The notes under the pieces were generated by a model. It saw only the letters and a list, made by a program, of their open reading frames with translations, had not been told where the DNA came from and did no database searches. From a virus (taxonomy: Duplodnaviria; Caudoviricetes), in IMG/VR virus record IMGVR_UViG_3300005611_000014, positions 6,080-70,079 of that record: a stretch of DNA of 64,000 bases; one strand, 5' to 3'. A program made the translations under genes and the position numbers. This document shows, one piece after another, positions 8,114 to 62,627 of the stretch (position 1 is the first letter of the stretch; every line of letters starts with the position of its first letter).

Positions 8114-11100
8114 TTATCTAGGGGTCAAACTTGCTTCCATTGCCGGAATTTGCAATAAGTTATCTAAGTGTCCCAGCGGTAACAGAGAAGATCTATTCGT
8201 AACCCCTGAAGTGGAAAAAGCAGTATCCATTATATCCGGTGCATCATAACTTAATAGTTGCTGCGCCCATAATGTAGCAAGTACATTGACAGGTTTATCT
8301 ACAAGTTGTCTTAGAATGACTTTCTGTATTCGCAAGAAGAACTTACTGAACATGACAAAACCCATATCGTTAGCGTACTGTAATGCAGCGTGTGTAGGTA
8401 AATCATAGTTAACAAAAGTCTCCACAACGTAATTAATAGCTTCTGCTTTTTCCATCCCTGTTTCTTGTTTGTGTTTATACAAAGCATATCTTGCTACAAA
8501 ATCACTCAATTGAGTAGCATCTCTTAAAACTTTATAAGTTTTAGTGTCATGTGTAATAAACAACTGACTAGTTACTGATTTAATTATTTCCGGTGTACGG
8601 GAAACAATAGGATCAGTTAATTTATCCAAACCACTCAAATATGTAAAATTGTTTTCTTCCATTTCCACATCTTCAATAATAGCTTGAAGTACACCTTCGT
8701 CAATTAAATCCTTAACAGGATTCTTCGCAATTTCTTCCTCAATACGACTAATACGGCTCTTAATATTTAGTCTTTCACTAGATGTTAAACGCTTGTTGGC
8801 TTGTAATTCTAATTCTAATTTTCCTAATGTATTTCGTAATTCTTTATAATCCAGTACTGCTCTTGTTCCTTCCATACTCCATTTAGTTTGTTTGGCTAGA
8901 GAAATACCTTCTACGGTGTTAACAATAAAATTACTTAAAATATTACCCATTAAAACGAAACCAGACTTAACAACAATAATATCTTTAATTAACTTCATAA
9001 TATCTTGCCAGATAACTTCTGCTTTAAGAATAGTAGAATTGTTACCCAGTAAAGCCATACCTCTACCTATTGCATTAACTAAGGATTTTTCAGAGTTTTG
9101 TAATTTATTATCAGCCCACTGACCAATAGTTAATTTACGTTGTCCGAAAACCAAAGGAATTAAACCTTCTCGTACAGGTATGCCCCCTAAAGCAGCTATA
9201 TTAAATTTACTTTCTAAGAGTCGTCTAGTATCAGAAGGAAGCAAACGATAAAATTCTTCATCTCCTGTGAGTAAAGTAAATTCAGTAGACTCTCTGGCAT
9301 AGTTAGCATCAAAATCATCCACTAATAAATCTATAGCTTTGCTGTTAATCATAGCTGAATTATTTTTGTCTATGATGGCACCAAACATATTACCCAGTAC
9401 TTCATCGAAGTGGGTGTTCATTTGCATAACATTCTTTTTCACATACTCTGTACCAGAGTATCTATAGACAGGAGAAGAGTAAGTATAGTCACCTACTGTC
9501 GTTAAATGACTAGGTGTAAGCGTATAATCATGTGCTTGGTTTAATCTATCTGCTTCTGTTTGTACGGCTGCATTGGCTTCGTTACTTAAACCAGTACCCT
9601 TACTTTGCAAACTGGTTAAACTAAATATACCAGACATATATTTACGTAAGCCGCCTACGTCATTTACCATTAAGGTAACGGATTCTGTTGACCCGGTTGC
9701 AGGATCAGGAGGCAACTGTGTTACTTCTTTGTAGTTCTTACGTATAAGATCTGCTTTATCTTCAGGTGTAGCAGCAATAGCTAACGCAACATTAGGATTA
9801 GTTTCTTCTTTTACATATCCTTTAATCATTAAAGATTCTTGATCAAAGAAGTTCTCTTTTTTAGATTTCTCTTTGTGTAAGTTGTACATCTCCATCGTAA
9901 AGAGTAAACCATTATCTGTTTCAGACTTACCTGCTTTTAATTCTTTACGATAGATTTCCTTAATCTTTTCAGCATTTGCTTTATTACTGCTAGTATTCAA
10001 AGTATATAACGTAATGAGTCTATCTATAATAGGCTGCACATCTTCTGCATTGTTTACTGTAACGTGGCTATTATTTACTGCTCTCGCTATGTTATGCGCA
10101 TTATTTAGTGTTCTACCTGCAGCTAATAGCGCAACACCTTCACTATTAAGAGAAGCTAAACTTCTAGCTTGAGCTTTATAATAAGCAAGAGTATTAGTGT
10201 CATTAGTTATTGCACGTAAGTCTCTTTCAGTAGAAGCAATAGCTCTATCCCTAGCAGCTTGGTTAGTAATAACATCATAGACTTGTTTAAAGTTACCTGC
10301 ATTACTACGTAGTAATACGCCTGCATCGGATTTCAATAAACTGTAGTACACTGCATCTTTTTCTTCAGCCGTAAGTATAGAGCCGTATTTGCTTTGTATT
10401 GCTTTGGTTGCCTGCAAAGAAGCATTGGCTCTTTCCCGTTCTACATAGTTAGAGCTATAGCGAAGCATGGCAGTAAACACGGCATTTTTAGAAGTGTTGC
10501 CTAGCATCTCTCTAGCAATACTTTTAGTAAAGCCGTTCTTTGCTATACCCATTCTTCTAGACCATTCATTTAAAACAGAAGCGGTACTTTCTAAAGTTAA
10601 TCCTGTTTTATTTAAAACGAGGTCTAGTGCTGGTGTCACAACAGGTACGTCCTTACCTAATACTTTACCTTCAGGAAATAATTTAGCGAGAGGTGCACGA
10701 ACATAATCACTAAGCGCACCTAACGCTTTGCTGTTAACAGTGTTTATAAACTTAGCAGATTTACTTAACCTAGTTAGATTATCATTTTGGGTATTTACTA
10801 ATTTTTGAGCCAAGATAAGTAAGGTTTCATTTCCATTCAAACCTTGTATACCTAATCGTTTGGCTTCAAAAGCTGAAAGCATATCTCCTAAGATACTTAG
10901 TAAATGGTTAGCTGCATTTACAAAAATGTTTATACCTTTATATTTACTTGGCTCAATTCTACTTAAATCAGTAGAGTTCATGGCTTCAGTAATTTCAGGT
11001 TTAGCAAGGGCTTTCATTAACTTTTCATTTGTTAATCCAAACGCAAAAAACTCATGCAAGTAGTGGTTTCTGTTTTGTTCTAAAGTTACACCATTAACTG

Positions 11101-14100
11101 CTAATTCTTTATTTTGTTTAAACGCTTTAGTATTTCTAAAAATATATTCGTAGAGTTTTTGCGCTTCTTCTTTTTCAGATGCAGTAGGATTAGGATTAGG
11201 ATAGAAATCTTCAGCAGTAATATTACGCTCTGCCGCCATAAATAATTTACGTATTTTCTTAAGCGTGACAGCATCGCCTTTACCATCTAATAAGTGATGA
11301 CTGATATGGTGCAGTAATTCGTGTACATACACTTCCGGTGCAGATAAGAAAGACGTATTAGCTCCTGTAGCTGTGCCTAGAGCGATTTCTATTAAAGGTC
11401 TATCTCTGGCATGGAATCTACCCATAGTAACGTCAGACGTATTATCTATAGCCACATTGATAGGCTTCATAACATTCTGTATCAGCGTATTTACTACGCC
11501 TTTCAAATGTTGGCTATGTTGTGTACTTACGCCCCGTGGATCAGCCATTTCAAGTTGATCGTACAAATTCAAAACATTGTTAGTATCCACTGCTTGAGTA
11601 GAAGATGTATTGAATGTTCCTTGCGAAGAAGTAGAACCAAATAAATCTAATTGATTTTGTTTATCTAAGGCACGTTGTATATCTTTAAGCCCGGTATCTA
11701 CTAAACTTTCTACCTGTTCTTCTTCTGTTTTACCTTTAGGTTTTAAAGGAGGAGTATCACCATCCACTTTATATGCAGCATTATGTAAGAAATACTGATC
11801 CACCGATTTAATCTGATCAAACTTGGCACGATTATTTAGCAAGCTTGTATTAATAGCCTGTGCTTCATTTTTAATTTCTTCAAGAACTGAATCAGTAGCG
11901 TCATAAGGTACTCCATCAAAAGTACTTATTGCTTCTTGTAAAAGACTTGTGTATTCAGGATTATTTAAAGCTTCCGTAAACATGTTATACATACGGTGAT
12001 AAGGGTTATTCTTAACGTCTTTCAATAAATTAAGAATAGTTTTATTCGTATTTATTACACCTTCTCTAGCTGTAACAACAGAATGTCCGTTAGAATCATG
12101 CTGGTTAGTAGCAGGAGAATGAGAAATAGTATCTAAAGTGGTAGCACCATCTATGTTATGGATGGACATTACAGGTAAACCTACACCTAATGCGGAAAGT
12201 GTACGACTTCTTCCTGTACCTGCTAAAGATAGTGAACGTGTAACCTTGTTTTCTATTTCCCCTTTACTATTTTGAGTAACTCTATTGGAAGCAAAAGAGT
12301 AAGTATCTACCCCTTCTTGAATTTGATCCAACAAAGCTAATTCGCTTTCTGTTAAGTTAGGATTGCTGCCTGCTGCTTCTAGTGTAGAAGATAAAGCGGA
12401 AATAAAAGTATAAGGAGTAGGGTTAGTACTTCCTTTCTTAGCTGCAGTGTATTCTGCACCATAAGTACTTTTAACAAAGCTTTTAGGAGAAGCAGCAATT
12501 ACTTTATGTAGGTTCTTTAAAGCTTCTAAACTATCAGCTTTATTGCCTATTTTGGTTTGTGTTCCACCTAATACACTACGCAGCATACCTATCTTAGTAG
12601 CTATAGAGGCATCTTCTGTAGCTGAAGATACGCCTTTGATAGACTTGTATAAGTCTACGCCTTCACCTTCTACAGAGTTAAGTAAATCAAAGTTACGAAA
12701 TACACCAATCTTTTCTACTTGTTCTTTTATTTTTTCTACTCTAGAAGTAGATAGATCAGTAACGATACCGTTGTTTATGTTGCTATTCATTGTTGCAACT
12801 AATTCAACTGCTTCAGCTAAACTTCTAGGACTAACAGTATCTATCTTATTATCTCTAATATACTTCTGTTCTGCAGCACTAGCTTTATTGCTGCCTAGCT
12901 TTTGAATTAAAGCATTAAAGTATATTTTGTAATAGCTCGCTATATAACCTTTAGAGAGAGTAATTGCCATCTTATTCATGGACTCTCTGTTATATATAAA
13001 TGTACCTAGTACTTCATTAGCAGGAGCTTGCAACGATAGTTCGTAGATAGCTTTCATTGCTACACGCATTCTAAATTCTGTATTCTTAGGTAACAATTTA
13101 GGCTTAACAATAGCCTTTTTATTTTTAAATGTTACATAAGGGAAGTAATTAAAATCAGGAGCAACATCAGTAAAATCTCTATAAAACTGATTCACTTTAT
13201 CTACGTACTCATTAAATTCAGTCATTTCTTCTCTAGATGTAGGTACACGTATAAGCTTCTCATACATTTCATCTATATGGTAAGTAACTGCATCTGTTGC
13301 AGCCGTACCTAATCCTGCCCCAAAACCAAACATAGTAGTCGGTAGCTTTCCTGCGCTTCTATCAAAAGAGAAAACGTTAGTAATGCTTTCTTTTAAGGAG
13401 ATTAAAGCAGGGTGTATTTCTTTACGGCTTAATTTAAATACAGCTCTGAAATATTTAACTACCCCTGGAACTGAAGCGTAACCATCCGGTGAGCTTACAA
13501 ATTCACTTGAGCCTATCATGTTATCTAGGTATTCAGGGAAACTATCACCTAATACTTTTGTCCATGCCTCACTTACTTTAGAGTAAATATCTTTATTACC
13601 TTCTTGAGTAATCCATTCATCAAAAGACATATTAGGATCTACGTAGAAACCACCTGCAGCCATTAGCTCAAAGAAGTTAGCACCATTGATTCCCATTAAG
13701 CCAATACCAATAACTACACCGTTTGTAGTACCGTCAGCGTCTACACGTAAAGTGCTTTCAAACTCACCATCAGGATTATATTTAGCTAGCTCACTTAGAA
13801 CGTATAAGCCATCAGCATTCGCACCGTATTTTTCAGCAAACTCTATAATTGTATTCTCATCTTCTGCACTTACTGTTTCTTCAGTACTTGCTCTAGCATA
13901 TGCGTCTGAAGCAGTTTTATACAGTTCTGAGTTATAGACTTCATCAAAAACAGGAGCAATATCCTTAAGCTTCATGTTATTGGTTTTATACCCAAGCTTA
14001 TCTAGAATGCTTGATTTATACGAAAGCATCTGTGCAGTATTTTGTCCATTAACTGTCCGTTTAAAATCGGCTAAACCAGATAAAGCTCTGTGTAACTTAG

Positions 14101-17100
14101 AAGTCTGTGGATTGAATATAGAGCTTTCATAACCAAAACGTCTATGTGTCCACGCAACTACTTTAAGATAAAAAGGTTTAGTACCTTGTTCGGTTGTTTT
14201 ATAGAAATCCAGTAAGTTATCAACTTCCCGTACAAGTCCTGTATTTTTACCATTTTCGATACTGCCTACTTTATTCGCAGGCATTTTACTACGATCCACT
14301 ACAACACCTGTTAAACGGTCTTGTGTTTCTGTAGAGAATTTAACAAAAGTATGGCCTGCGTCATTAAAGGTATTGGCGTAATTAGATGCCTTGAGCATTT
14401 TAGCTCTAGTCTCTTCAGGCAAACCTTTACCTCTGTTATTTTTAGAACTAACTGAGCTATACGGCTTAAGAGAAGGAGCTTTAGCTTTACTCTTTAGATT
14501 AAACATTTCACCTAGTAGATTAGGTGCAGCATCTATAGGATTAGTGTGTACATCTGCTTTAGTCTTATCTACTTGATAGAAGGTAATACTAAACGTACTA
14601 TCATAAGTTTTAGTGTCCGATCCAGTTAAGTCATTTAATACTGCACTAGATACATTAGTAAGTTTAACTAGTTTTTGGTTAGCTAAAAATGTCATAGCTA
14701 GATTACCAATACTACTTTCTAGTCTACTTTGAAAAGAAGCAGAATTACCTTTATCTGCTTTTAAACCAAGAATACGTAGGGTATTTTTACCTATATCTTC
14801 CGCAGCAAGTTCTTTGTTATCACCTGCTTCTTCAATAAATGCTCTTTCTGCTTCAGTAACAGGATGATCTTCGTGTCTACCTAAAATACTATTAACAGTA
14901 GGATCATCTAATACTTTCATGATGCGTTTATCATTATTAAGCATTTCTACTGTTGCACCGTATACTGCAGATATGAAGTTGTCTGAGTAATTTTTATTAT
15001 CTTCTGTAAATAGTAGAGTTGGAGATTTTCTAAATACTTCTACCCTACGGAAAGCATCACTTTCAGCTACTTTAACTACTTTCTTAAATGCTTCTCTAAA
15101 CGTAGCTTCGTTTGCTAGAAACTCAGTAGTTGCAGCAAGTCTATTAGCAGGACTTGTATTTTCATCTATGTTTTTAAAATACTTCTGAATAAAACCTTTA
15201 GTGTTTTCTCTAGCAATATCCATGAATGGCGCAGAGTATTGACGTAAATAGCTATTGCCTTTCTTGGCTAATATACGTGCAGGAGCAATAGCCGCTTTAC
15301 CAGAAGCAGTTAACGGTGAAAGTCTATTTAGGAAAACATCTTTGATTTCTCTAAAAGCAGTGGTGTCTACCGCTTCTTCTTCCTCTACGGTTGATTCAGC
15401 AGCAGGAGTTTCTTCTACGCTGTCTACAGGAGCATCTATTACAGTTTCTGTAGTTGCGGGATTGTCTCCTTCTACGTTTATAACAGTAGTGTTTTTTGTG
15501 TTGGTTTCAGAGAAAGCTGCTTCTTCCAGTTCTCTTTTAGTGTTACGAATAACATTACGTAGAACGTCAATCGCATTACCCTGTTTTTCGGTAGGAACGC
15601 CTCCAGTAGCAGCAATATTGTCCCTTATACTTTTTAGTTTGGTAACAGCCTTATTATACTCTTCTTGAGGAGTACCCGGAGCAGGAAAGGTTATGTCGTC
15701 TTCACTATCTACTTCTTCTGCAGGTACGTCAATAACAGTTTCATTTGTACTGTTACTTTCTGCAGAAATAGGCGCTTCTTCTTCTGGAAGATCTATGACT
15801 GTACTCTGGTTAGGATTAGTAACAGGAGCTTTAGCTAGGTTGTCATTATTCACTGCGGATAGATCTGCAACTTCAAGTATATCGCTTGTTTTAAGTTTCT
15901 CTGAAATAATACGAGTTTCGTCTAAAACGCCTTTAAGTGCAGCAGCTTCTTTTTCCATAGTAGCAACTAGACCGCCTGATCTACCATCTATGTATGCTTC
16001 GCCTGTTAAACCTTTAGTATGATTACGGTAGGCAGCAATAGCAGAAGTATATTCAGCAGACGTTGAACCAAACTTATTATATGCATCATATGCCGCTCTA
16101 GCTAATTGGCTTTTCTTTGTATGCGTATCTGTAAAGCGAGTTAATTCTTCTAAACTCTTATTAAAGCTTTCTGTTTTACCTTGTAAAGCAGCACCTTTAG
16201 CAGAGTCATAGTAATACGCAGCACCACGCCAATTCTCCCCATTAAGTTTACCGCCTTCTAGTATAACTTTACTGGTTTTAGGAATAGAGCCATTACCTGT
16301 ACGATTAAGTTCGTTTATAGCTTTACGTGCTTTATATAAAATAGTTAAGTCAGCTCTAGCTTCAGCACTTAAGTTGCTACTAGCTTTTATTGATTTACCT
16401 AAGTTAGCTAAAGTTTTATCATCAAACACTGTAGGATCTGAACCAAATACAGCATACGCTTCCTGTGTACTAATACCGTTAGCTTTCTTGCCTTCTTTTA
16501 AATCTTTAATAAGAGATGCATTAGCATTTTGCTGGTAAGATGTAACCAGTATTCCTACGCTTGCTTGATTCTTATTAGCTGCGGTTGCTTGTGCAAGTAT
16601 AGCTTTCCGTTCTGCAGGATTAGCATCAGGCTTTGAGAGTATTTCCTTGGCTGCTTTATCTAATCTTTCTGTCTCTTCGTTAGCCAATATACTTGTAGTA
16701 TTAATATAATCTTTAATTACTTGGGGTTCTTGGTTCTTAGTAAATACTTTACTTGCTACTCTACTATCTAGTAATCGAGTAACTACTGCACTTTTATTTT
16801 CTACAGGCGTATTTATTAAATCTTTAACCTTATTAGCTTTAACTGTAGCAATTACTGCATCTGTTAATTCTTTATCTTGCTGTACACCATCTACAATATT
16901 AGCTGCTTTACTTACTGCAGTGTTAGCAGTACTTACTGTACCGGAAGTTGTACCTCCCGTAACTGCACCAACTACCGCACCAATACCAGCTTGAGAAGCA
17001 ACACCTGCATCCAGTTTCTGATTTTCGTTAATGGTTCCTTTAATAGCAACATTGCTTGCTAACTGTCCAGCAGCAGATTGACCAAATTCTTCAGCACCTT

Positions 17101-18181
17101 CGTTAAGTGTACCTTTAAGTGTATCACCTAATATTTTACCCAGACCTTGCTTATCAAGTAAGTTACCTAATAACTTATCTGTTCCAGTAAATTTAGATAT
17201 TAATCCCGCAGCCGCACCAGATAGTAAGAAGGTATTAATAAAGCCATTATTACTTAGATCTCGTACTATTTCTTCGTGGTCTTCTCCTTTAGCAATACGT
17301 TCTCGATAAATAGGAGAGTTTTCCATAAGGAATGCGATGTTCTCTGCATTCTTTTCTGTATATTGGTTTATTTCATTTGCTACCTGTACAGCATTAGATG
17401 AGCCTTCAATGGCAGCAATGGAACCAAGAGCAGCAAGAGAAGCCTTTTTATTAGCCATCTGTTTAGCTTGGTTTCGTATCTGCAGCTCTGCCGCTTTTCT
17501 TGCTTCGCCTGTTATTTCTTTACCAATAGAGGCATAGAGCTTTCCTGATTTAGCAGCTTCGGTAATACTCTTTTCTATCTTTTTACGTACAAATCCTGCA
17601 ACACCAGCAGGTGCTACAAAGCTTAGAGAAGACTCTGTACCCATAGAGAGCAAAGCTGCAGGATTCTTTAATACTTCAGAGCCGCCATCTAACGCTCTAC
17701 CTAAAAAGTCCTGAACATGATCTACAACAGAAGCACTACCTTCTATTTGATCAAAAGCAATATCTCTTTCTTGTTCTTTTCGTTCAATGTTTTTAGCTAG
17801 TCTAGCTTCTTGATAAAGCAGTTTATCTGATTTACCTGAATCCAGTAATTCATTAACTCTACCAAAGCCTTCTAAAATATTAGTGGCATCTTCTATAAAG
17901 CCTCCACTTAATAGGTTAGCTGTACCTGCAACAGTTTCCCCTATACTTAGTGCAGACTTAGTTAGATTTATACCTAAATCCGTAACTCGTTCACCGCTTG
18001 TTCTATTTTGCAGTAATGCGTTTTCTTTTGCCGCATTAGACAAATCTACTGAAGATTGAAATAGTTTCTGTTCTGCGGCACGAGTATTAGCTGCTAAACC
18101 ATCTAAAGTAGCTAACTTTCTACTAAGAGCAGAATCTACTTCCTGTTCTTTTGAAGGCTTACGAGGTAAAAAATCTTCCAT
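8114..18181 (-). CDS. Virion-encapsidated RNA polymerase (N4 gp50-like vRNAP), 3355 aa
   Basis: Size and position match. No Cys seen. Motifs: HRRFGY (T/DxxGR region), A (DADGTTNG), B (RSAGKLPTTMFGFGAG) and C (SIHNIDG). C-terminal VHELLH and a terminal region containing ETFVNYDLP. Confidence 0.95.
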   Translation of the reverse strand: MEDFLPRKPSKEQEVDSALSRKLATLDGLAANTRAAEQKLFQSSVDLSNAAKENALLQNRTSGERVTDLGINLTKSALSIGETVAGTANLLSGGFIEDATNILEGFGRVNELLDSGKSDKLLYQEARLAKNIERKEQERDIAFDQIEGSASVVDHVQDFLGRALDGGSEVLKNPAALLSMGTESSLSFVAPAGVAGFVRKKIEKSITEAAKSGKLYASIGKEITGEARKAAELQIRNQAKQMANKKASLAALGSIAAIEGSSNAVQVANEINQYTEKNAENIAFLMENSPIYRERIAKGEDHEEIVRDLSNNGFINTFLLSGAAAGLISKFTGTDKLLGNLLDKQGLGKILGDTLKGTLNEGAEEFGQSAAGQLASNVAIKGTINENQKLDAGVASQAGIGAVVGAVTGGTTSGTVSTANTAVSKAANIVDGVQQDKELTDAVIATVKANKVKDLINTPVENKSAVVTRLLDSRVASKVFTKNQEPQVIKDYINTTSILANEETERLDKAAKEILSKPDANPAERKAILAQATAANKNQASVGILVTSYQQNANASLIKDLKEGKKANGISTQEAYAVFGSDPTVFDDKTLANLGKSIKASSNLSAEARADLTILYKARKAINELNRTGNGSIPKTSKVILEGGKLNGENWRGAAYYYDSAKGAALQGKTESFNKSLEELTRFTDTHTKKSQLARAAYDAYNKFGSTSAEYTSAIAAYRNHTKGLTGEAYIDGRSGGLVATMEKEAAALKGVLDETRIISEKLKTSDILEVADLSAVNNDNLAKAPVTNPNQSTVIDLPEEEAPISAESNSTNETVIDVPAEEVDSEDDITFPAPGTPQEEYNKAVTKLKSIRDNIAATGGVPTEKQGNAIDVLRNVIRNTKRELEEAAFSETNTKNTTVINVEGDNPATTETVIDAPVDSVEETPAAESTVEEEEAVDTTAFREIKDVFLNRLSPLTASGKAAIAPARILAKKGNSYLRQYSAPFMDIARENTKGFIQKYFKNIDENTSPANRLAATTEFLANEATFREAFKKVVKVAESDAFRRVEVFRKSPTLLFTEDNKNYSDNFISAVYGATVEMLNNDKRIMKVLDDPTVNSILGRHEDHPVTEAERAFIEEAGDNKELAAEDIGKNTLRILGLKADKGNSASFQSRLESSIGNLAMTFLANQKLVKLTNVSSAVLNDLTGSDTKTYDSTFSITFYQVDKTKADVHTNPIDAAPNLLGEMFNLKSKAKAPSLKPYSSVSSKNNRGKGLPEETRAKMLKASNYANTFNDAGHTFVKFSTETQDRLTGVVVDRSKMPANKVGSIENGKNTGLVREVDNLLDFYKTTEQGTKPFYLKVVAWTHRRFGYESSIFNPQTSKLHRALSGLADFKRTVNGQNTAQMLSYKSSILDKLGYKTNNMKLKDIAPVFDEVYNSELYKTASDAYARASTEETVSAEDENTIIEFAEKYGANADGLYVLSELAKYNPDGEFESTLRVDADGTTNGVVIGIGLMGINGANFFELMAAGGFYVDPNMSFDEWITQEGNKDIYSKVSEAWTKVLGDSFPEYLDNMIGSSEFVSSPDGYASVPGVVKYFRAVFKLSRKEIHPALISLKESITNVFSFDRSAGKLPTTMFGFGAGLGTAATDAVTYHIDEMYEKLIRVPTSREEMTEFNEYVDKVNQFYRDFTDVAPDFNYFPYVTFKNKKAIVKPKLLPKNTEFRMRVAMKAIYELSLQAPANEVLGTFIYNRESMNKMAITLSKGYIASYYKIYFNALIQKLGSNKASAAEQKYIRDNKIDTVSPRSLAEAVELVATMNSNINNGIVTDLSTSRVEKIKEQVEKIGVFRNFDLLNSVEGEGVDLYKSIKGVSSATEDASIATKIGMLRSVLGGTQTKIGNKADSLEALKNLHKVIAASPKSFVKSTYGAEYTAAKKGSTNPTPYTFISALSSTLEAAGSNPNLTESELALLDQIQEGVDTYSFASNRVTQNSKGEIENKVTRSLSLAGTGRSRTLSALGVGLPVMSIHNIDGATTLDTISHSPATNQHDSNGHSVVTAREGVINTNKTILNLLKDVKNNPYHRMYNMFTEALNNPEYTSLLQEAISTFDGVPYDATDSVLEEIKNEAQAINTSLLNNRAKFDQIKSVDQYFLHNAAYKVDGDTPPLKPKGKTEEEQVESLVDTGLKDIQRALDKQNQLDLFGSTSSQGTFNTSSTQAVDTNNVLNLYDQLEMADPRGVSTQHSQHLKGVVNTLIQNVMKPINVAIDNTSDVTMGRFHARDRPLIEIALGTATGANTSFLSAPEVYVHELLHHISHHLLDGKGDAVTLKKIRKLFMAAERNITAEDFYPNPNPTASEKEEAQKLYEYIFRNTKAFKQNKELAVNGVTLEQNRNHYLHEFFAFGLTNEKLMKALAKPEITEAMNSTDLSRIEPSKYKGINIFVNAANHLLSILGDMLSAFEAKRLGIQGLNGNETLLILAQKLVNTQNDNLTRLSKSAKFINTVNSKALGALSDYVRAPLAKLFPEGKVLGKDVPVVTPALDLVLNKTGLTLESTASVLNEWSRRMGIAKNGFTKSIAREMLGNTSKNAVFTAMLRYSSNYVERERANASLQATKAIQSKYGSILTAEEKDAVYYSLLKSDAGVLLRSNAGNFKQVYDVITNQAARDRAIASTERDLRAITNDTNTLAYYKAQARSLASLNSEGVALLAAGRTLNNAHNIARAVNNSHVTVNNAEDVQPIIDRLITLYTLNTSSNKANAEKIKEIYRKELKAGKSETDNGLLFTMEMYNLHKEKSKKENFFDQESLMIKGYVKEETNPNVALAIAATPEDKADLIRKNYKEVTQLPPDPATGSTESVTLMVNDVGGLRKYMSGIFSLTSLQSKGTGLSNEANAAVQTEADRLNQAHDYTLTPSHLTTVGDYTYSSPVYRYSGTEYVKKNVMQMNTHFDEVLGNMFGAIIDKNNSAMINSKAIDLLVDDFDANYARESTEFTLLTGDEEFYRLLPSDTRRLLESKFNIAALGGIPVREGLIPLVFGQRKLTIGQWADNKLQNSEKSLVNAIGRGMALLGNNSTILKAEVIWQDIMKLIKDIIVVKSGFVLMGNILSNFIVNTVEGISLAKQTKWSMEGTRAVLDYKELRNTLGKLELELQANKRLTSSERLNIKSRISRIEEEIAKNPVKDLIDEGVLQAIIEDVEMEENNFTYLSGLDKLTDPIVSRTPEIIKSVTSQLFITHDTKTYKVLRDATQLSDFVARYALYKHKQETGMEKAEAINYVVETFVNYDLPTHAALQYANDMGFVMFSKFFLRIQKVILRQLVDKPVNVLATLWAQQLLSYDAPDIMDTAFSTSGVTNRSSLLPLGHLDNLLQIPAMEASLTPR

Positions 18182-52516: not shown

Positions 52517-52865
52517 TCATTCCTTCTTCTTCACTAATCCAAGTTTCTCTTACTTTACTCGCAGGACAAGTAGAATACCCGATATACAAAAAATACACCC
52601 TTGGTGCTATCTGTTCTACTAATATCAAATCTCTATCTTTTAACTCTTTCTTTCTTCTAGCCAATACTACCTTACTTATATCCAACGCTTTCATTATATA
52701 CTTATCACTAAAGTTCTGCCCATTTCTTAAACCAAGCATATAACCATACAATACTTTAGCTCCATCACTTAAGTTTCTATCTACAAAAACTCTCTTATCT
52801 ACTCTAGTAAACTGACTAGACGGATATAGTCCTCTTATAATCATATCTTTACTCTCACAGTCCAA
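52506..52865 (-). CDS. Winged helix-turn-helix DNA-binding protein
   Basis: LSDGAKVLYGYMLGL...SDKYIMKALDISKVVLARRKKELKDRDLI. First gene of the late strand. Confidence 0.7.
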   Translation of the reverse strand: MDCESKDMIIRGLYPSSQFTRVDKRVFVDRNLSDGAKVLYGYMLGLRNGQNFSDKYIMKALDISKVVLARRKKELKDRDLILVEQIAPRVYFLYIGYSTCPASKVRETWISEEEGMNDD

Positions 52866-53381
52866 AATACTAAATATACTCTTATTTATCCTCTATTAAT
52901 ACTGTACATATATACAGTGTGAGGTGTCATATATGATACCTGACATAAGGTATACTTTTTGAACCCCTATAAAAACGATACCCTATATAATACTAACTAC
53001 ACCATCCAAGGATACTGTCACAAGTTGCGCCCATCCGAAGGCTGAGGCTTACTTGTTTCCTTAAACCCAAAAACCCCAGCTCACTCTAGTCGTGATCCAA
53101 TAAATTAAGGCTGTATTCTTCTTCCTGTGCTCTTTTTAGTAGATAGACTACTGTTGGTTCATATATTAATTAAAAAGCTCTTAGAGAGCTTATACGTAGC
53201 TTGTAGTAAATTCATACTTTGGATTTTTGAAATATTGTAATGTAGGTAGAGGTGCAGCTTCTGTCTCCAAATACAGTAATTTCGAAATACCCCCCCGGTC
53301 ACTTTCTATTTTTCAAATTCTGATAACACCACCCCTTATGTCATTGGCAATCATGCCTCATATATTTAATGGAGAAATACT
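52866..53381. other. Late/early strand-switch region, expected location of the genome ends / direct terminal repeat
   Basis: No long ORF. Divergent gene blocks on either side. In N4 the termini lie between the terminase-side genes and the first early gene. Exact ends cannot be read from this sequence. Confidence 0.6.
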
Positions 53382-53600
53382 ATGTCTATATTCAAATCAG
53401 TAAGCTCAGTTGTAAACAAACTAGGCAATACTATAGAAAAGTCTCTAGATTTCGTAGATACCAGCGTTTCAGCCCTAAATGAAGTGGCTAAAGCAGGTGA
53501 ATTCGAAGCAAAAACTCTTTGTAAATCAAGCGAGTACGAGTACGAACAGAGTATGATCAAACTTGATTCACTTAAAGAATCTTCAAAAACCCTCTTATGA
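53382..53600 (+). CDS. Early hypothetical protein, 72 aa
   Basis: RBS GGAGAAATACT directly before ATG, and followed by a terminator. Confidence 0.75.
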   Translation: MSIFKSVSSVVNKLGNTIEKSLDFVDTSVSALNEVAKAGEFEAKTLCKSSEYEYEQSMIKLDSLKESSKTLL

Positions 53601-53611
53601 GGGTTATTTTT
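53588..53611 (+). terminator. Intrinsic terminator
   Basis: AACCCTC TTAT GAGGGTT followed by ATTTTT. Confidence 0.7.
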
Positions 53612-53771
53612 CTTTATAACACCTTATACACAACACCTTACACCTTAAGACAGAGTGCTAGAGCAGTGTTTCCTTCTACACAAACCCTTTCCTTACCCTT
53701 CATTCCGCTTTCCCTTTTGTCAATGGTGATCAATTCCGATTGCTATTTTATTAATTAATTTGGAGAAATAT

Positions 53772-54047
53772 ATGTCAATTTCAATTAAAGAAAGAGTTAA
53801 AGCTAATGATTCTGACTTCGCTAAAGCGGAGGCATTTGCGAATGGTGACTTAGTTGCCGTTAATAGCAAAGGTGAAGAAGTTCGTTTGCGCTTAGCAAAG
53901 GGATTAGCTTTAAGATCTGATCAGTCTAGTAATACTAAGGCTTGGTTGGATCATGCAAAGGCTAATCCTGACCATGAGTATACCTTAAAGGTCAAAGTCA
54001 ACTTTAATGTTGATGGTTCTGCGGATTTGGAAGATTTAACCTTCTAA
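53772..54047 (+). CDS. Early hypothetical protein, 91 aa (position where N4 carries gp2-like early genes)
   Basis: RBS TGGAGAAATAT before ATG 53772 (track start TTG 53760 is upstream of the RBS). Acidic end ADLEDLTF. Confidence 0.7.
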   Translation: MSISIKERVKANDSDFAKAEAFANGDLVAVNSKGEEVRLRLAKGLALRSDQSSNTKAWLDHAKANPDHEYTLKVKVNFNVDGSADLEDLTF

Positions 54048-54055
54048 ACCAAAAC

Positions 54056-54088
54056 AACTCTAGTTCTTCGGAGCTAGAGTTTTATTTT
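54056..54088 (+). terminator. Intrinsic terminator with a cUUCGg loop
   Basis: AACTCTAGTTC TTCG GAGCTAGAGTT followed by TTATTTT. Confidence 0.85.
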
Positions 54089-54113
54089 AATAAAGACAGA
54101 TTGGAGAAAGAAT

Positions 54114-54236
54114 ATGGTAGAAATTATATGTGAAACGCTGGTAGAAGCGATGGAACATGTTGGTAGAGATCAATGCCAGCAAATAAAGAGAGTAAATAAT
54201 AACTGGATAATGACATTGTATTATCCAGAAATGTAG
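54114..54236 (+). CDS. Small early protein, 40 aa (not in the ORF track)
   Basis: RBS TTGGAGAAAGAAT-ATG. MVEIICETLVEAMEHVGRDQCQQIKRVNNNWIMTLYYPEM. Bracketed by two terminators. Confidence 0.65.
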   Translation: MVEIICETLVEAMEHVGRDQCQQIKRVNNNWIMTLYYPEM

Positions 54237-54258
54237 AGAGGTTATCCTCTCTTTTTTT
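54235..54258 (+). terminator. Intrinsic terminator
   Basis: AGAGAGG TTAT CCTCTCT followed by TTTTTT. Confidence 0.8.
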
Positions 54259-54274
54259 ATGAGGGAGACAGATT

Positions 54275-54790
54275 ATGTATAAACATTTAAAAGATAGGCA
54301 TTTAGATGTACGTAGATACAGAGGAGTCGTTGTTACAGATGAAGTAGTAACATTTCCTTTATGGAATTTAGTAGGACAAATGGTTGGTTATCAGCAGTAC
54401 AGACCAAAAGGAGATAAGCAAGAAAGACGTAATCCAAAGCTAGGTAAGTACTTCACGTATTTGCCTAAAAATAATCATGTGACAGCATGGGGATTAGATG
54501 TATTAAATTTAGAAGATCGTAGAGTGTATTTACTGGAAGGTGTATTTAAAGCCTGTAGATTTCATAACTATGGACTAAATGCTTTAGCTGTATTGGGTAA
54601 TAATCCAAAACATTTAAGCGAGTGGTTAAGGAGTTTAGGGTATCACGTACATGCAGTATGTGATGGTGATACGGCTGGACGCAAATTAGGATATTTTGCT
54701 AATACTTGTACGTATTTACCGGAAGGTATGTATGTAGATGATATGAGCGTAGATGAGTTTAATCAATTACTTGGAGAAGTGACATGTTAA
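54275..54790 (+). CDS. Stand-alone Toprim-domain (DnaG-like primase fragment) protein
   Basis: PLWNLVGQMVGYQQY, VYLLEGVFKA (Toprim Glu), ALAVLGNN and VCDGDTAG (DxD). RBS GAGGGAG. Confidence 0.7.
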   Translation: MYKHLKDRHLDVRRYRGVVVTDEVVTFPLWNLVGQMVGYQQYRPKGDKQERRNPKLGKYFTYLPKNNHVTAWGLDVLNLEDRRVYLLEGVFKACRFHNYGLNALAVLGNNPKHLSEWLRSLGYHVHAVCDGDTAGRKLGYFANTCTYLPEGMYVDDMSVDEFNQLLGEVTC

Positions 54791-55518
54791 AAGAATTAAC
54801 CCAAATAATAGAAGAAGATTTACTTCCTGCTTCTGTAAAGAAAGAAGTAATTAGTAATATTGATAAGATAGGTAATTTTACTGAATTAGAGACAGATATA
54901 TTAGTTACTTTATTAATTAAAGATAAGAGTGTGTCTATTCAACAACTATTTGGTCTACGTAAGATAGAACAAGTAAGTGCAGTAATAGAAGCGTTGGAAT
55001 CACTGGAACAACAAGAAATAATAGATATAAGAATAGTGTCTGAGAAAACTGTATTTATAGATTGTAAGTATGGTTTAGAAGGAGCTATTAAGGAGAAAGT
55101 AGATAATGCTATTTATCCTAAACCTTTGATTATTAAGCCTAAAAATATTAGTAGTGTTAAAGCTAAGATTGGTTTAAGTAGTGATAAAGAAAGCATATTT
55201 ACTAGAGGACATGATCCTTTTAGAAGGAAAACTGTACCTTTAAATGTAATTAATATCTTACAACAGACAGCCTTTACACTAGATGAAGTAGTGTGTAGTA
55301 CGCCTGAAAGAAATAAGAAGTTATTTACTAAGAAACAGATTGCTGCAGAGGAACAGCATAATGAAGAAACCAAGAAAGTTGTAGATTACCTTATGGAAAA
55401 CGGTAATGAGTTCTACTTTAAATGGAAATATTGTCATAGAGGAAGAATGTATCCTAGTGGTTATCACATTAACCCTCAAGGTACTGAGTACAAGAAAGCA
55501 ATGTTAAATCTTAAATAA
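54784..55518 (+). CDS. RNA polymerase II subunit 1 (N4 gp15-like)
   Basis: FYFKWKYCHRGRMYPSGYHINPQG...KAML (T/DxxGR motif region). Directly upstream of the second subunit. Confidence 0.85.
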   Translation: MLKELTQIIEEDLLPASVKKEVISNIDKIGNFTELETDILVTLLIKDKSVSIQQLFGLRKIEQVSAVIEALESLEQQEIIDIRIVSEKTVFIDCKYGLEGAIKEKVDNAIYPKPLIIKPKNISSVKAKIGLSSDKESIFTRGHDPFRRKTVPLNVINILQQTAFTLDEVVCSTPERNKKLFTKKQIAAEEQHNEETKKVVDYLMENGNEFYFKWKYCHRGRMYPSGYHINPQGTEYKKAMLNLK

Positions 55519-55531
55519 TTGGAGAAGTGTC

Positions 55532-56527
55532 ATGCAATCAATAGAACAGTATACAAACCAGCAGTATATCGAAATATGTTTAGCAAATACGGTTAGAGGT
55601 ATGGATAGAAAGACTTGGACTAAACGTCTAGGTCTAGCGTATGAAATACTAAATAAAGATTGCTCTGTAGCTGAGCTGTTAGCAGAGTATGACGTAAAAG
55701 AACCAATCATGTTTAGAAAGATTTATTCATATATTAAATCCAATAAACCTGTAGGTGAGTTTACTGGATCGTTGGATTTCACAGCTAGTGGTTTGCAGTT
55801 ATTAGCAATTGGTACAGGATGTATTAAAACAGCCGAGAGAACCAATTTAATCTTCACCAATAACCGTGAAGATGCGTATGAGTATGCTGCAAAAGAAATG
55901 ACGGAGACACTAGGAGAAGAGGTCACAAGGGATATTATTAAAAATCCTTTAATGACTACGTTCTACGGCAGTACTCAAAAGCCTTTAGAGTTGTTAGGTC
56001 AAGAGGCAATGCCTGCTTATCAAGACTTACTAGAGAATAGCTTCACAGGAGCGTATTTAGGCTTCCAGTTAATTCAACAGTGTTGGAATAAAGAAACCAC
56101 TAGTCATGAGTTCTATATGCCTGATGGTTTCCATGTAGTACTTCCGGTAACGGAAGTGAAGACAGTGGAAATAGAGTATGAGAAGTGGGGCGTTAAGATT
56201 CCATATTCTTACTCTGTAGAAACCAAGCAAGATAAAGGTATTAGTCTTGCTGCTAATGTAGTTCAAGCTATGGATGGCTATGTATGCAGGGAAATAATAC
56301 GAGAATTGCATGAAGATGGTGTTCCAGTATGGCCTATTCATGACTGTTTCATGGTTAAGATAAAGCACATGGAGCATTTAAGACTAGTGGCTAGAAAAGT
56401 ACTAGCAAAAGTATGTAAGCAGAATCTGCTAGTAGATATATTAAGTCAATTAACAGGAGAAGATCAGGACTTTGAGAAAGTAGATTTAAGCCAATCAATA
56501 GAAATGGCTGAATACATATTATCTTAA
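55532..56527 (+). CDS. RNA polymerase II subunit 2 (N4 gp16-like)
   Basis: Motif A LDFTASGLQLL, motif B RDIIKNPLMTTFYGS, AANVVQAMDG and motif C PIHDCF. Confidence 0.92.
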   Translation: MQSIEQYTNQQYIEICLANTVRGMDRKTWTKRLGLAYEILNKDCSVAELLAEYDVKEPIMFRKIYSYIKSNKPVGEFTGSLDFTASGLQLLAIGTGCIKTAERTNLIFTNNREDAYEYAAKEMTETLGEEVTRDIIKNPLMTTFYGSTQKPLELLGQEAMPAYQDLLENSFTGAYLGFQLIQQCWNKETTSHEFYMPDGFHVVLPVTEVKTVEIEYEKWGVKIPYSYSVETKQDKGISLAANVVQAMDGYVCREIIRELHEDGVPVWPIHDCFMVKIKHMEHLRLVARKVLAKVCKQNLLVDILSQLTGEDQDFEKVDLSQSIEMAEYILS

Positions 56528-56555
56528 ATTACCCAGTCTTTACCCTTTACCTAAA

Positions 56556-56599
56556 GCGCATGTACAAATAGTAAAATATTTGTATGTGTGTCTTTTTTT
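56556..56599 (+). terminator. Terminator after the RNAP II genes
   Basis: TACAAATA GTAAAA TATTTGTA core stem, extended by G-U pairs and followed by TTTTTTT. Confidence 0.65.
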
Positions 56600-56742
56600 C
56601 TATAGATTTATAGAAAGTAGTAAACCTGAAAGACTAAAATGACGTTTTTTATAATCCAGACGGCATACAGACTATAGACTAACTACTGTTTTTTCTCTTC
56701 TTTTTTCCTGTTTTTAAATAACAAATATAAAGGTATAAAATC

Positions 56743-56904
56743 ATGAAAGAAAAACCAAATACTAACCTATTAGGTAAAGGCGTTCAGACATTAAGAAGTA
56801 ATGAAGCTCTCTCTTCCGGTCATATCTTTAATCAAAAAGAAAAAGACAGACAAAGAGAAATTCTACGTCAACAAACTGAAGAGTTTTATAGGAGAAAACA
56901 ATGA
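56743..56904 (+). CDS. Small hypothetical protein, 53 aa (not in the ORF track)
   Basis: AAGGT RBS, MKEKPNTNLLGKG...EEFYRRKQ, and ATGA overlap with the next gene. Confidence 0.55.
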   Translation: MKEKPNTNLLGKGVQTLRSNEALSSGHIFNQKEKDRQREILRQQTEEFYRRKQ

Positions 56905-57092
56905 TTACTCTTAGTAAAAATAAAGTAAATACACAATTTAAAGAACTAAATAAAAAGAAACTTATTACCGTTTTAGGTGAATTAGACAGTACAGGACACG
57001 TGGTAGATACGTATGAAATACCTACTGCTTGGCTTACTAGTGAAACAAATATGTCTGTTAAAGTAGATAGACAGATATTTACAAAGGTGTGA
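56901..57092 (+). CDS. Hypothetical protein
   Basis: RBS AGGAG and ATGA coupling. Confidence 0.6.
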   Translation: MITLSKNKVNTQFKELNKKKLITVLGELDSTGHVVDTYEIPTAWLTSETNMSVKVDRQIFTKV

Positions 57093-57093
57093 T

Positions 57094-57600
57094 ATGAAAA
57101 AATTAACTCTAGTCTTAGAAATGGAAATTGAAACAACACCTGTTGCTAAGGCTAGAGCTAGACACCGGGTAGTGAATACTAAAGCCGGGGGATCATTTGT
57201 AAGTACCTATACTCCTACTAAGACGAGAGATTTTGAAGCATTGGTTCATCGCTGCGCTAAAGATGCTATGAAAGCCAATGCGCCAGCAACAGAACCAATT
57301 TGTTTAAATATCTTATTTACTTTCGCTGCTCCAACTAGTTTTCCTGCTTATATAAAAGAATGGATAAAAGCATCAATTATAGGACACACAAAGAAACCAG
57401 ACTTAGATAACTTAGTAAAAGCTATTAAAGACGGGTTAAATAAGGTGGCTTGGGTTGATGATAGTCAAGTTATACGGATGGAAGTAGAAAAACATTACGG
57501 TGAAAAAGACTTAATACAAGTAGAAGTATTCACTGTAGATAAGTTGTCATATGTAGGGCAAACCAAACAAATAATGGAAAGCTTACTCGCTAAACTTTAG
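57094..57600 (+). CDS. rusA: RusA-family Holliday junction resolvase
   Basis: PVAKARAR, TYTPTKTRDFE and KKPDLDNLVKAIKDGLNKVAWVDDSQV with the catalytic Asp residues. Confidence 0.88.
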   Translation: MKKLTLVLEMEIETTPVAKARARHRVVNTKAGGSFVSTYTPTKTRDFEALVHRCAKDAMKANAPATEPICLNILFTFAAPTSFPAYIKEWIKASIIGHTKKPDLDNLVKAIKDGLNKVAWVDDSQVIRMEVEKHYGEKDLIQVEVFTVDKLSYVGQTKQIMESLLAKL

Positions 57601-57610
57601 GAATTACGCT

Positions 57611-57832
57611 ATGAGTCATGAATTAGCGATAGACCTCTTATTAGAGGAAATTTATATAATTACGTTGCGGCTAGAAGTTATAGATGCACGACTAGAAAAA
57701 GCTACAACATGTGAAAATGTAGAAGACAGAGCATACAGAGAGATAGCTTGTATGAACCAACAAGCAAGATGCTTTGATCGTATCAATACCTTAACAGAGA
57801 GTATACATGCTCTAAGGAAATGTGATGTTTAG
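57611..57832 (+). CDS. Hypothetical protein
   Basis: 73-aa ORF with a TAGGA RBS in the co-directional gene run. Confidence 0.55.
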   Translation: MSHELAIDLLLEEIYIITLRLEVIDARLEKATTCENVEDRAYREIACMNQQARCFDRINTLTESIHALRKCDV

Positions 57833-58022
57833 AGGGTATGTATATAGAACTCCTTTAGTTAAAACAGCGTCTACGCCTCTTAGATTTGCAGATATTACTT
57901 TATATACTGCTGAGGAATTTAATGAACTAACAGATAAGCAGAAGGCCAGAATAGTAAAAATACAAGCTGCAGATAAAGGCGTTCTTGAAACAATATTTGG
58001 GAAAGAATCGTGCACAACTTAG
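57822..58022 (+). CDS. Hypothetical protein
   Basis: 66-aa ORF overlapping neighbours on both sides. Confidence 0.45.
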   Translation: MMFRGYVYRTPLVKTASTPLRFADITLYTAEEFNELTDKQKARIVKIQAADKGVLETIFGKESCTT

Positions 58023-58198
58023 AAACAATTTGTGTTTTTCTTCTTCTTTTTTGCTTCGCATTTTTAGCAGGTGCAACACTTTATCAAGATGCAGAGTATA
58101 AACGTCAACTTATTGCTGCTATTAAAGATAAAGGTAATAGTGAACCTAACGAAGTGCTAGATCCTATTTTAGACAAACTAATCAAGAAGGAAGAATAG
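58010..58198 (+). CDS. Small protein with one N-terminal TM helix
   Basis: ICVFLLLFCFAFLAGATLY followed by a charged tail. Confidence 0.55.
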   Translation: MHNLETICVFLLLFCFAFLAGATLYQDAEYKRQLIAAIKDKGNSEPNEVLDPILDKLIKKEE

Positions 58199-58199
58199 T

Positions 58200-58382
58200 A
58201 TGAGTGACTATACTAGTGTCCAGATTAAACGAGTACTGAATAACTTAACGCCTACTGATCAAATTACTTTAATAATGGCGAGCCAAAAAGTTAAAACAAA
58301 AACTTTAAACATCAGCACAGCTCAAGCCGAGGCTATTTATGAAATCCTTACCAACAAAGAAAGATGCCAAGATAATCCTTGA
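58200..58382 (+). CDS. Hypothetical protein
   Basis: AAGGAAG RBS, 60-aa ORF. Confidence 0.5.
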   Translation: MSDYTSVQIKRVLNNLTPTDQITLIMASQKVKTKTLNISTAQAEAIYEILTNKERCQDNP

Positions 58383-58860
58383 AATACTATATGCAATAGA
58401 CGGTATAGTGTTTTCCTCTGTCCAAGAAGCCTGCAAACATTACAAAATAGATCCTTCTACGTTCTATAAACGTCTAGCTAGAGGTATGAATACTTACGCA
58501 GCAATGACCACTACACCTGAAAAAGCAATTAAAAAGCGGTGGTCAGCAGAAGAGATAAATTATCTTAAAACCATGGCAGTACATAAGACAGCTAAGCAAA
58601 TAGCTTATTTCTTAGAACGTAGTCCTAAGAGTGTAGAACGCAAAGCACAGAATTTAAACATCTCTCTTGCTCCGCGCAAAGTAGAGTGGACAGATTTAAA
58701 TCCAACGCAACGTATGTTCTTAGTGGACTTAATAGATTGTGGTCATAGTTTATCCACTATTAAACAGAATCTATACCCTATGTTCACAATAGAATACTTA
58801 CAGAAGCAGTATAACAAAACTATGAATGAGGCAATGAATAATGTACGCAATACGTTCTAA
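58339..58860 (+). CDS. Multi-HTH DNA-binding protein
   Basis: IDGIVFSSVQEACKHYKIDPSTFYKRL (small HTH), then RWSAEEINYLKTMAVHKTAKQIAYFLERSPKSVERKA (Myb/GcrA-like HTH). Confidence 0.65.
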   Translation: MKSLPTKKDAKIILEILYAIDGIVFSSVQEACKHYKIDPSTFYKRLARGMNTYAAMTTTPEKAIKKRWSAEEINYLKTMAVHKTAKQIAYFLERSPKSVERKAQNLNISLAPRKVEWTDLNPTQRMFLVDLIDCGHSLSTIKQNLYPMFTIEYLQKQYNKTMNEAMNNVRNTF

Positions 58861-58972
58861 CGGTTTATGGGTTATTAGATACCTTAACGCTAATGGCGAA
58901 GTTAATGAAGTTGCTGGTAAAGATTTAGTAGCAACAGTAGCTCTTTTATTTAGAAGTTATAACTATGTCTGA
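58841..58972 (+). CDS. Small hypothetical protein, 43 aa (not in the ORF track)
   Basis: GAGG RBS, MYAIRSNGLWVIRYLNANGEVNEVAGKDLVATVALLFRSYNYV. Fills the gap between neighbours and overlaps both. Confidence 0.5.
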   Translation: MYAIRSNGLWVIRYLNANGEVNEVAGKDLVATVALLFRSYNYV

Positions 58973-59321
58973 ACAGTCTTTATATAAGAACCTACAACAC
59001 TTAGTAGTTAAAGCTAAACATGAAGAGTTGCTTAGAATATGTAGCAAACACACTAATGTCCTTAACTACTATAAACACTTAGCTGAAACAAATAAGAATA
59101 CAAAGAAACATATTAATAAGATAGCTGCAGAAGTTAAATGTAGATTACGTCAATGCTCTGTTATTTATTTACTATTTACCGTAGACGGTGAACACACTAC
59201 TACTGCTAAACAAGCTAAAGCAGAAAGATTAATGGATCAAGGATATGACCTAGTAGGTACGTATACTTATCCTTTTTCTGCACAAGATTGTAAAGATGAT
59301 ATTGCTTGTTTCCTTTCTTAA
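58965..59321 (+). CDS. Hypothetical protein
   Basis: 118-aa ORF in the co-directional gene run. Confidence 0.6.
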   Translation: MSEQSLYKNLQHLVVKAKHEELLRICSKHTNVLNYYKHLAETNKNTKKHINKIAAEVKCRLRQCSVIYLLFTVDGEHTTTAKQAKAERLMDQGYDLVGTYTYPFSAQDCKDDIACFLS

Positions 59322-59338
59322 AATTTACAGGAGTTTTT

Positions 59339-59722
59339 ATGGATTACGATTTGATGCTTGCGCTTATTGAAGCCAAGAAAAACAATAAGCCTATTTACTA
59401 TAGAAAAAAGGGTTCAAACAACTGGATACGTTTACCTGTGGAGGAATCTTTTGATTTTATTCATATGGATTACTCAATGGAACCAGTTATTCCTAAACTG
59501 CTGTATGTGAATATCTACTCCGATGGAGAAATATACGCACACACTTCTGAAGAGAATGCTGCAATAAACGCAGACATTACTACAAACGCAGTGTATTCAG
59601 AAGAATATATAGCTTTGCGTACAGTACAGCCGTTAATTGAACACCTTGTTACTGATCCGGTTATGTTACCGTGTCATATAGATGCTGCGCTAAATGTAGT
59701 GCTAGGAGCTATTCGTGGGTAG
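59339..59722 (+). CDS. Hypothetical protein with a common phage N-terminal domain (paralogue of 60383-60703)
   Basis: ATG 59339 behind CAGGAG (track start 59306). ALIEAKKNNKPIYYRKKGSNNW...FDFIHMDYSMEP. Confidence 0.65.
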   Translation: MDYDLMLALIEAKKNNKPIYYRKKGSNNWIRLPVEESFDFIHMDYSMEPVIPKLLYVNIYSDGEIYAHTSEENAAINADITTNAVYSEEYIALRTVQPLIEHLVTDPVMLPCHIDAALNVVLGAIRG

Positions 59723-60386
59723 TATAAATATTCGTGATGCTGTAATGGACTCTCTAGTTTATCTAGAAAATACAAATACATTGGATGAAATAGTAGCAGA
59801 GCAGGTTACTGAACTAATTAAAGAAACTATACGTGAATCCTTGAAATCGTATAATCCAGTAGGTAGTGCGATACAGGATTCTATTAAAGAAGCTATGAAT
59901 AGTAGTGCAGCTAGTTTAGATTTACCTAGCTATAACGTGTATATAGCTCAACTGGTTAATGATTGCTTTACCGACACTTTGCAAAAAGAAGGAAAAGAAC
60001 ACCTTCAACAACTGATTGCTAATACTGTTGGTAATGTACCTGTCAGTTCTACTTTTACTTCCTTACTTGAAGAAATACAAACAAAAATGGAAACTTTTGC
60101 AGGAGGAGAAATAAAAGAAGAAACAAATGAAGATGCGTCAGCAATCTATTTAACTATTCCTGATGAGTACAATGAATCAATTAAAGTTAGTCTTTTTAAC
60201 TTTAGTACAGAGAATAAAAACCATTACCGTATTTGCTATATAAGTACTAATAGAGATGTGATTACAGGTTTTACTGCAAATAGAGTTTCTACCTATCGCT
60301 CAGAATTAGTTAATCGCCTTTACGCTTATTATGCTAAAGGTACGCTCTTTGAGAAAGACCACAACGTACAGGGGAGCCTACCATGA
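59715..60386 (+). CDS. Hypothetical protein
   Basis: 223-aa ORF with GTG start behind AGGAG. VKDIV-like N-terminal helical region (IKETIRESLKSY). Family not recognised. Confidence 0.65.
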   Translation: MGSINIRDAVMDSLVYLENTNTLDEIVAEQVTELIKETIRESLKSYNPVGSAIQDSIKEAMNSSAASLDLPSYNVYIAQLVNDCFTDTLQKEGKEHLQQLIANTVGNVPVSSTFTSLLEEIQTKMETFAGGEIKEETNEDASAIYLTIPDEYNESIKVSLFNFSTENKNHYRICYISTNRDVITGFTANRVSTYRSELVNRLYAYYAKGTLFEKDHNVQGSLP

Positions 60387-60703
60387 ATATGAGTATAGAT
60401 GACATGATCATCGTATTGGAAGCCTATAAATTAGGTAGACCGATACAAAAAAGAGCACCTAGTATTTCTGAATGGACGAACGTGCTTGAAAATTATGAGG
60501 AAGAGTTTGACTTTCAGTACTACGAGTATCGTGTGAAACCTGAACCACGTTACGAGGTTAGGACTATTGCCGATAAACAGTACGTAGACATTCAAGCTTT
60601 GAGGGACGTACTTCCTTTGATAGCAGTAGTAGGTTTACCTTCAGAACATGTTTTTAAACATATTAAGGAGGCAATAGACAGTGCTAACTCTGAAACAGAT
60701 TAA
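60383..60703 (+). CDS. Hypothetical protein (paralogue of 59339-59722)
   Basis: IIVLEAYKLGRPIQKR...EW...FDFQYYEYRVKPEP. GGGGAG RBS. Confidence 0.65.
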   Translation: MNMSIDDMIIVLEAYKLGRPIQKRAPSISEWTNVLENYEEEFDFQYYEYRVKPEPRYEVRTIADKQYVDIQALRDVLPLIAVVGLPSEHVFKHIKEAIDSANSETD

Positions 60704-61025
60704 TGATCACATGACTCGCCCTAAATCTAGGCTGTTGGCTTCAGATGGTTGGGGTGATACATCATTAGATATAAGCCATAGTAATACCAATACATTTTAC
60801 ACAGGCGAAGTTGAATCCTTATTTGAATTAAGGGTAACAACTAGGTTAATAACACCAGCACCTTATGATCATAGAGTCAGTAAGTATGCTGCCGAGGCTA
60901 TCCATAAGCATTTATTTCATGATTTAGAAGAAAGACTCCTTATAGTCAGACATAGAATGAACTTCTGTACTAAAGACGAAGCCATGCAATTATTGGATCA
61001 ATTAATTAATGATATAAAAGGATAA
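60681..61025 (+). CDS. Hypothetical protein
   Basis: 114-aa ORF with GTG start behind AAGGAGG. Confidence 0.6.
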   Translation: MLTLKQINDHMTRPKSRLLASDGWGDTSLDISHSNTNTFYTGEVESLFELRVTTRLITPAPYDHRVSKYAAEAIHKHLFHDLEERLLIVRHRMNFCTKDEAMQLLDQLINDIKG

Positions 61026-61031
61026 ACCGTA

Positions 61032-61720: not shown

Positions 61721-61763
61721 CCTATTTTTCTTCCTTTTTTCCTTTCTTATACGGAGGTACACA

Positions 61764-62294: not shown

Positions 62295-62321
62295 TTATTT
62301 TTTTTTTAATTGGGGAAAATC

Positions 62322-62595: not shown

Positions 62596-62627
62596 TACTT
62601 TATTTTCTTACAGAGGAGTGCGTTCTA

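Follow-up and report, generated by a model that had tools for sequence, protein, structure and literature searches.

The virion RNA polymerase (vRNAP) encoded in the 64,000-nucleotide stretch of phage DNA analysed here (the window; positions 6,080 to 70,079 of IMG/VR record IMGVR_UViG_3300005611_000014) is a divergent new member of the N4-type (Schitoviridae) vRNAPs and has a phenylalanine, Phe1620, at the position of the motif B tyrosine (N4 Y678, T7 Y639). Phenylalanine was found at this position in a large part of the family, accompanied in every vRNAP scored by a histidine ahead of motif C. The enzyme is probably an ordinary early-transcription vRNAP of the Phe type, with a somewhat relaxed sugar selectivity that would be tolerated because of this histidine and the excess of rNTPs in the cell.

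A divergent N4-type virion RNA polymerase

The window holds an N4-like gene set comprising DNA polymerase, primase, SSB, major head, portal, terminase and a split RNAP II, together with the vRNAP gene. The vRNAP features are as follows.

8114-18181, minus strand: virion RNA polymerase gene (N4 gp50-like), 3355 aa, no Cys
11762-15214, minus strand: central polymerase domain, about aa 990-2140 (from profile, predicted model and structural match)
14138-14140, minus strand: R1348, aligned with N4 R424, the sole invariant residue of a degenerate T/DxxGR motif
13718-13735, minus strand: motif A, with catalytic D1483 and G1488 (N4 G564 / T7 G542; by alignment), without a DNA-polymerase-type steric gate
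12095-12100, minus strand: motif C, H2028-D2029 (N4 F950-D951; by local alignments)
11309-11323, minus strand: zincin-like HExxH motif of the C-terminal domain, retained as in N4 CTD C1

Among the matches listed, the polymerase domain was at most about 31% (23-31%) identical to the representatives of other 50%-identity clusters, and the best cultured matches reached about 26% identity over 520 aa (E about 1e-31). The sensitivity of some searches was limiting: Pfam returned no vRNAP match for the protein, and single-sequence searches with it missed the N4 structures and close viral loci. A profile of its relatives matched N4 mini-vRNAP (2PO4) with an E-value of 3.5e-76, the phenylalanine falling on Tyr678. 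The predicted model of aa 1033-2140 (pLDDT 74.9, pTM 0.81) had N4 mini-vRNAP as its best structural match (3C3L; Z 26.3, rmsd 5.2, 834 aligned), and Foldseek gave an E-value of 1.8e-20 against the same structure.

Counterparts of N4 R424, K437, R440, D559, G564, Y612, R666, K670 and D951 were all present. The glycine at the G1488 column was invariant in 181 of 181 aligned sequences and the bulky motif A gate of family A DNA polymerases (Glu) was absent, and rNTPs are therefore not excluded at this position. The T/DxxGR motif (14130-14155, minus strand) was degenerate in the query, in LIT1 and in most non-N4 vRNAPs, with only its arginine invariant across the 181 sequences. The stretch between motifs B and C (aa 1830-1960, about 12300-12690, minus strand) was longer than in the relatives and modelled with low confidence; it led to misalignment of motif C, and may contain a lineage-specific specificity loop or an insert. 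An HExxH motif has been described for N4 CTD C1 (PMC13434306). By homology, and from the lack of cysteine, the protein would be packaged in the virion and injected.

Phenylalanine replaces the motif B tyrosine

The substitution was noticed in a first-pass annotation of the DNA, and the features that bear on it are these.

13313-13360, minus strand: motif B (O-helix), with R1608, K1612, F1620 and G1621, fitting R-x3-K-x7-[Y]-G
13322-13324, minus strand: codon TTT for Phe1620, aligned with N4 Y678 / T7 Y639
55928-55972, plus strand: motif B of the RNAP II large subunit (gene 55532-56527), with Tyr kept and Gln at the His position discussed below

The motif B letters were as annotated, and they lie in frame in the open reading frame at 8114-18181. 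Both the alignment of 181 sequences, in which the N4 reference was the actual NC_008720 sequence, and a careful subset of it placed F1620 on N4 Y678 and R1608 on N4 R666, as the annotation had done. In hhalign the motif fell on T7 R627-Y639, with confident local columns but an overall probability of only 7%. The canonical tyrosine that precedes glycine in the T7 family (R-x3-K-x7-Y-G) is thus Phe1620 in the query, and aa 1608-1632 contain no other tyrosine that could fill the role of Y678. The observation that RNAP II of the same genome retains its tyrosine was also borne out (+55928).

Phenylalanine is a common state of the column

The first-pass annotation implied that phenylalanine is rare at this position, which proved wrong. 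The variant has been in print since 2010: in the work of Ceyssens et al. on LIT1/LUZ7/PEV2, the legend of Fig. S2 names a single departure from the conservation of motif B, 'the Y678F substitution' (PMC3715699), and phenylalanine in the Y678 column was confirmed here from the LIT1 sequence. The substitution was therefore already known, and the query adds a divergent carrier. Six of the 29 named phages have phenylalanine (LIT1, DEV, KPP21, Ka3, phCDa and 98PfluR60PP, all cultured Pseudomonas phages, the four beyond LIT1 and DEV bringing the carriers to four genera), and the other 23 Schitoviridae have tyrosine. In addition, a 60-aa LIT1 probe across motif B had identical matches in 54 GenBank phage records, PEV2 included.

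The metagenomic samples are biased towards relatives of the query. The nearest 148 clusters at 50% identity, drawn from the best 150 of 421 vRNAP matches, comprised 96 with Phe, 50 with Tyr and two that were truncated, and of the 102 sequences, query included, that were aligned from IMG/VR and metagenome loci, 62 had Phe and 40 had Tyr. Scans centred on N4 returned 81 Tyr and one Phe, which lay outside the N4 branch, and a DNA pattern for an N4-type motif B with Phe had no match in IMG/VR. Given the 96 of 148 clusters, and LIT1 and DEV, the motif B tyrosine is not a defining trait of vRNAPs. Among very long relatives (4000-4300 aa), one was of the Phe type (P0003) and three were of the Tyr type (P0004-P0006).

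A tree built without the Y678 column required at least 14 changes between Tyr and Phe. One large Phe clade contained Tyr tips, and a few Phe tips lay outside it. Free trees put the query on a long branch among Tyr lineages, which suggested that its phenylalanine had arisen independently; a tree constrained to hold the query within the Phe clade was as good or better (p-AU 0.73, not rejected), and a separate origin was therefore abandoned. Placing all Phe sequences in a single clade was not rejected either (p-AU 0.21).

These results also bear on the base call. TTT and TAT are one base apart, the codon is known here from the assembly alone, and the position of the query among Tyr lineages in the free trees would suit an error for TAT. 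However, phenylalanine is normal in this column, the histidine that goes with it is present, and membership of the Phe clade fits the data; a sequencing or assembly error is therefore very improbable. An 85,143-bp ENA contig (L002, ERZ27252103 k141_181293), probably the source assembly, matched the 70,079-bp genome letter for letter over 14,068 bp and was collinear with it, and for that reason was not counted as independent evidence for the base call. The contig appears to run about 15 kb further past the start of the genome, which is thus probably an incomplete copy.

Phenylalanine occurs with a histidine ahead of motif C

In vRNAPs an H-x-x-D block lies about 21 residues ahead of the motif C aspartate and resembles the T7 block that contains H784.

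12158-12160, minus strand: His2008, the putative equivalent of T7 H784 / mtRNAP H1125 (by motif alignment), present in every Phe-type vRNAP scored

The T7 block did not align directly with the vRNAP HMM. The phage's own T7-like RNAP II did align to the H-x-x-D block, with Gln in the His2008 column, and through this intermediate His2008 would correspond to T7 H784 and mtRNAP H1125.

The two columns were strongly associated. Phenylalanine was accompanied by histidine in 102 sequences and lacked it in none, and tyrosine occurred with histidine in 35 and without it in 40; the loci set, which overlaps in part, gave 62, 0, 21 and 19. A divergent Phe-type contig (L215) also had the histidine, and apparent cases of Phe without His in a regular-expression tally all disappeared on proper alignment. 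The N4 branch, with Gly or Ser at this position (the Gly together with a one-residue insertion), kept tyrosine in 75 of 75 scored sequences and had no Phe. The Pagel test favoured dependence (LR 32.9, 4 df), and only one of 2561 simulations of independent evolution produced zero exceptions.

It is possible, and compatible with the explanation preferred here, that this link stems from the geometry of translocation or initiation, or from common ancestry, and not from sugar selection; this reading was given appreciable though minority weight. The motif B tyrosine also works in translocation and H784 in initiation, and T7 H784 mutants reportedly kept ribose discrimination (Brieba and Sousa, in 2000), so that the histidine may matter for one of these other reasons. 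The strict independent-pairs test was not significant (3-4 to 0, p 0.125-0.25), and a single Phe clade was not rejected. Against this, of 64 comparable columns the histidine column alone had no exception, and Gln occurred within the Phe clade only on tips that also had Tyr. As the pairs test was weak and the next columns had just two or three exceptions, clade history accounts for part of the pattern. A requirement of Phe for His in vRNAPs is thus suggested by the sequence comparison but not proven. The first-pass annotation had offered a 'compensating sugar gate' as one outcome, and covariation with a conserved histidine would lend that idea indirect support.

Probable consequences for sugar selection

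The Y678F variant of N4 mini-vRNAP reportedly loses 2'-OH discrimination. The corresponding substitution relaxes discrimination against dNTPs and 2'-F-NTPs in T7, Syn5 and human mitochondrial RNAP (PMC4538805, PMC11335763); T7 Y639F and Syn5 Y564F take 2'-F-NTPs, and the discrimination left in Y639F is still substantial (PMC4538805). In human mtRNAP, Y999 and H1125 can both reach the 2'-OH of the substrate; Y999F accepts dNTPs more easily, and Y999F/H1125A accepts them more easily still (PMC11335763). When T7 Y639F was used in vivo, with rNTPs in excess, almost no usable ssDNA was made and the ssDNA-editing rate was only 3.4e-7 (PMC11775612). The literature searched contained no sugar-selectivity assay of a natural Phe-type vRNAP, and neither the Phe-needs-His pattern nor a family survey of the column.

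The explanation considered probable is that the enzyme, injected with the phage DNA, would transcribe the early genes in the ordinary manner. Loss of the tyrosine hydroxyl would remove one of two contacts to the 2'-OH, so that discrimination against dNTPs and 2'-F-NTPs in vitro would be lower than in the N4 enzyme, and His2008 would preserve the second contact. Because Y639F keeps residual discrimination and yields negligible ssDNA in vivo, the product in a cell with a large excess of rNTPs would be expected to be essentially normal mRNA. With the histidine contact retained and rNTPs in excess, Tyr and Phe could be interchangeable and toggle during evolution, and lineages without the histidine would keep tyrosine. 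LIT1, PEV2 and DEV, all of the Phe type, are normal lytic phages. The relaxed discrimination that the annotation anticipated for the query is a plausible expectation, which would apply to the whole branch, cultured phages included.

Selectivity could instead equal that of N4, with the motif B hydroxyl no longer involved in sugar selection and other residues sufficing. Phenylalanine predominates in an old and large clade, where it is freely reverted, and N4 N671 is not conserved but replaced by Leu, so the pocket of the query does differ from that of N4. However, the same change relaxes selectivity in T7, Syn5 and mtRNAP, of which T7 and mtRNAP already have the histidine, and full compensation therefore seems unlikely.

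Under an adaptive tolerance of deoxynucleotides, as proposed in the annotation, substantial dNMP would enter transcripts or primers in the cell and might serve in replication priming, in nuclease resistance or in continued activity once rNTPs are depleted. In a large clade most members have kept phenylalanine, engineered equivalents accept dNTPs, and N4 vRNAP is said to be necessary for replication (PMC2784036). The genome nevertheless encodes its own primase and DNA polymerase, the motif A glycine is kept, and T7 Y639F gave negligible ssDNA in vivo (PMC11775612); the repeated returns to tyrosine speak against a dedicated function, and the histidine, whose loss would increase dNTP use, is kept without exception. 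The primase, the returns to Tyr and the strict retention of His weaken this reading, which is regarded as quite improbable, and nothing was found in support of a special role in mixed RNA/DNA transcripts or primers. A broader proposal, to be held as little more than speculative, is that in an ancient, large N4-like branch, which includes the therapy phage DEV, ribose selection moved from the O-helix tyrosine to the palm histidine, and that measurable dNMP or 2'-modified nucleotides may occur in the products.

Relation to known polymerases and significance

The closest cultured counterparts are the gp71 vRNAPs of LIT1, PEV2 and DEV (Litunavirus) and the vRNAPs of KPP21 and Ka3 (Luzseptimavirus), phCDa and 98PfluR60PP, which like the query are giant and free of cysteine and share Phe at the Y678 column, the histidine before motif C and a degenerate T/DxxGR motif. 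The query is only about 26% identical to them (520 aa), and inheritance and convergence of its phenylalanine are both compatible with the trees. With N4 gp50 (PDB 2PO4, 3C2P, 3C3L) it shares the fold, the catalytic set, the lack of cysteine, the C-terminal HExxH and a gene position in the late block. N4 differs from it in having Tyr678 and Gly at the histidine position. In the early region of the incomplete genome (window 52865-64000), neither an N4-type triloop hairpin (C-G[AGT]A-G, stem at least 4) nor a conserved promoter repeat family was found; the promoter may differ in form. T7 Y639F, Syn5 Y564F and mtRNAP Y999F carry the same motif substitution, in T7 and mtRNAP on a histidine background, but they were made in the laboratory and their relaxed selectivity has been measured, whereas the query is natural and known from sequence; vRNAPs, unlike these enzymes, also use single-stranded hairpin promoters.

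For the query genome alone these findings have little importance, and the view of the family is of modest value. In nature, the supposedly 'invariant' motif B tyrosine is dispensable across much of the vRNAP family. The Phe-needs-His pattern offers a cheap test of whether the histidine of T7 (H784) and mtRNAP (H1125) truly is a second sensor of the 2'-OH, for which cultured DEV and LIT1 are better objects than the uncultured query phage. If the Phe branch is truly relaxed in sugar selection, it would constitute a natural library of enzymes for the synthesis of modified RNA.
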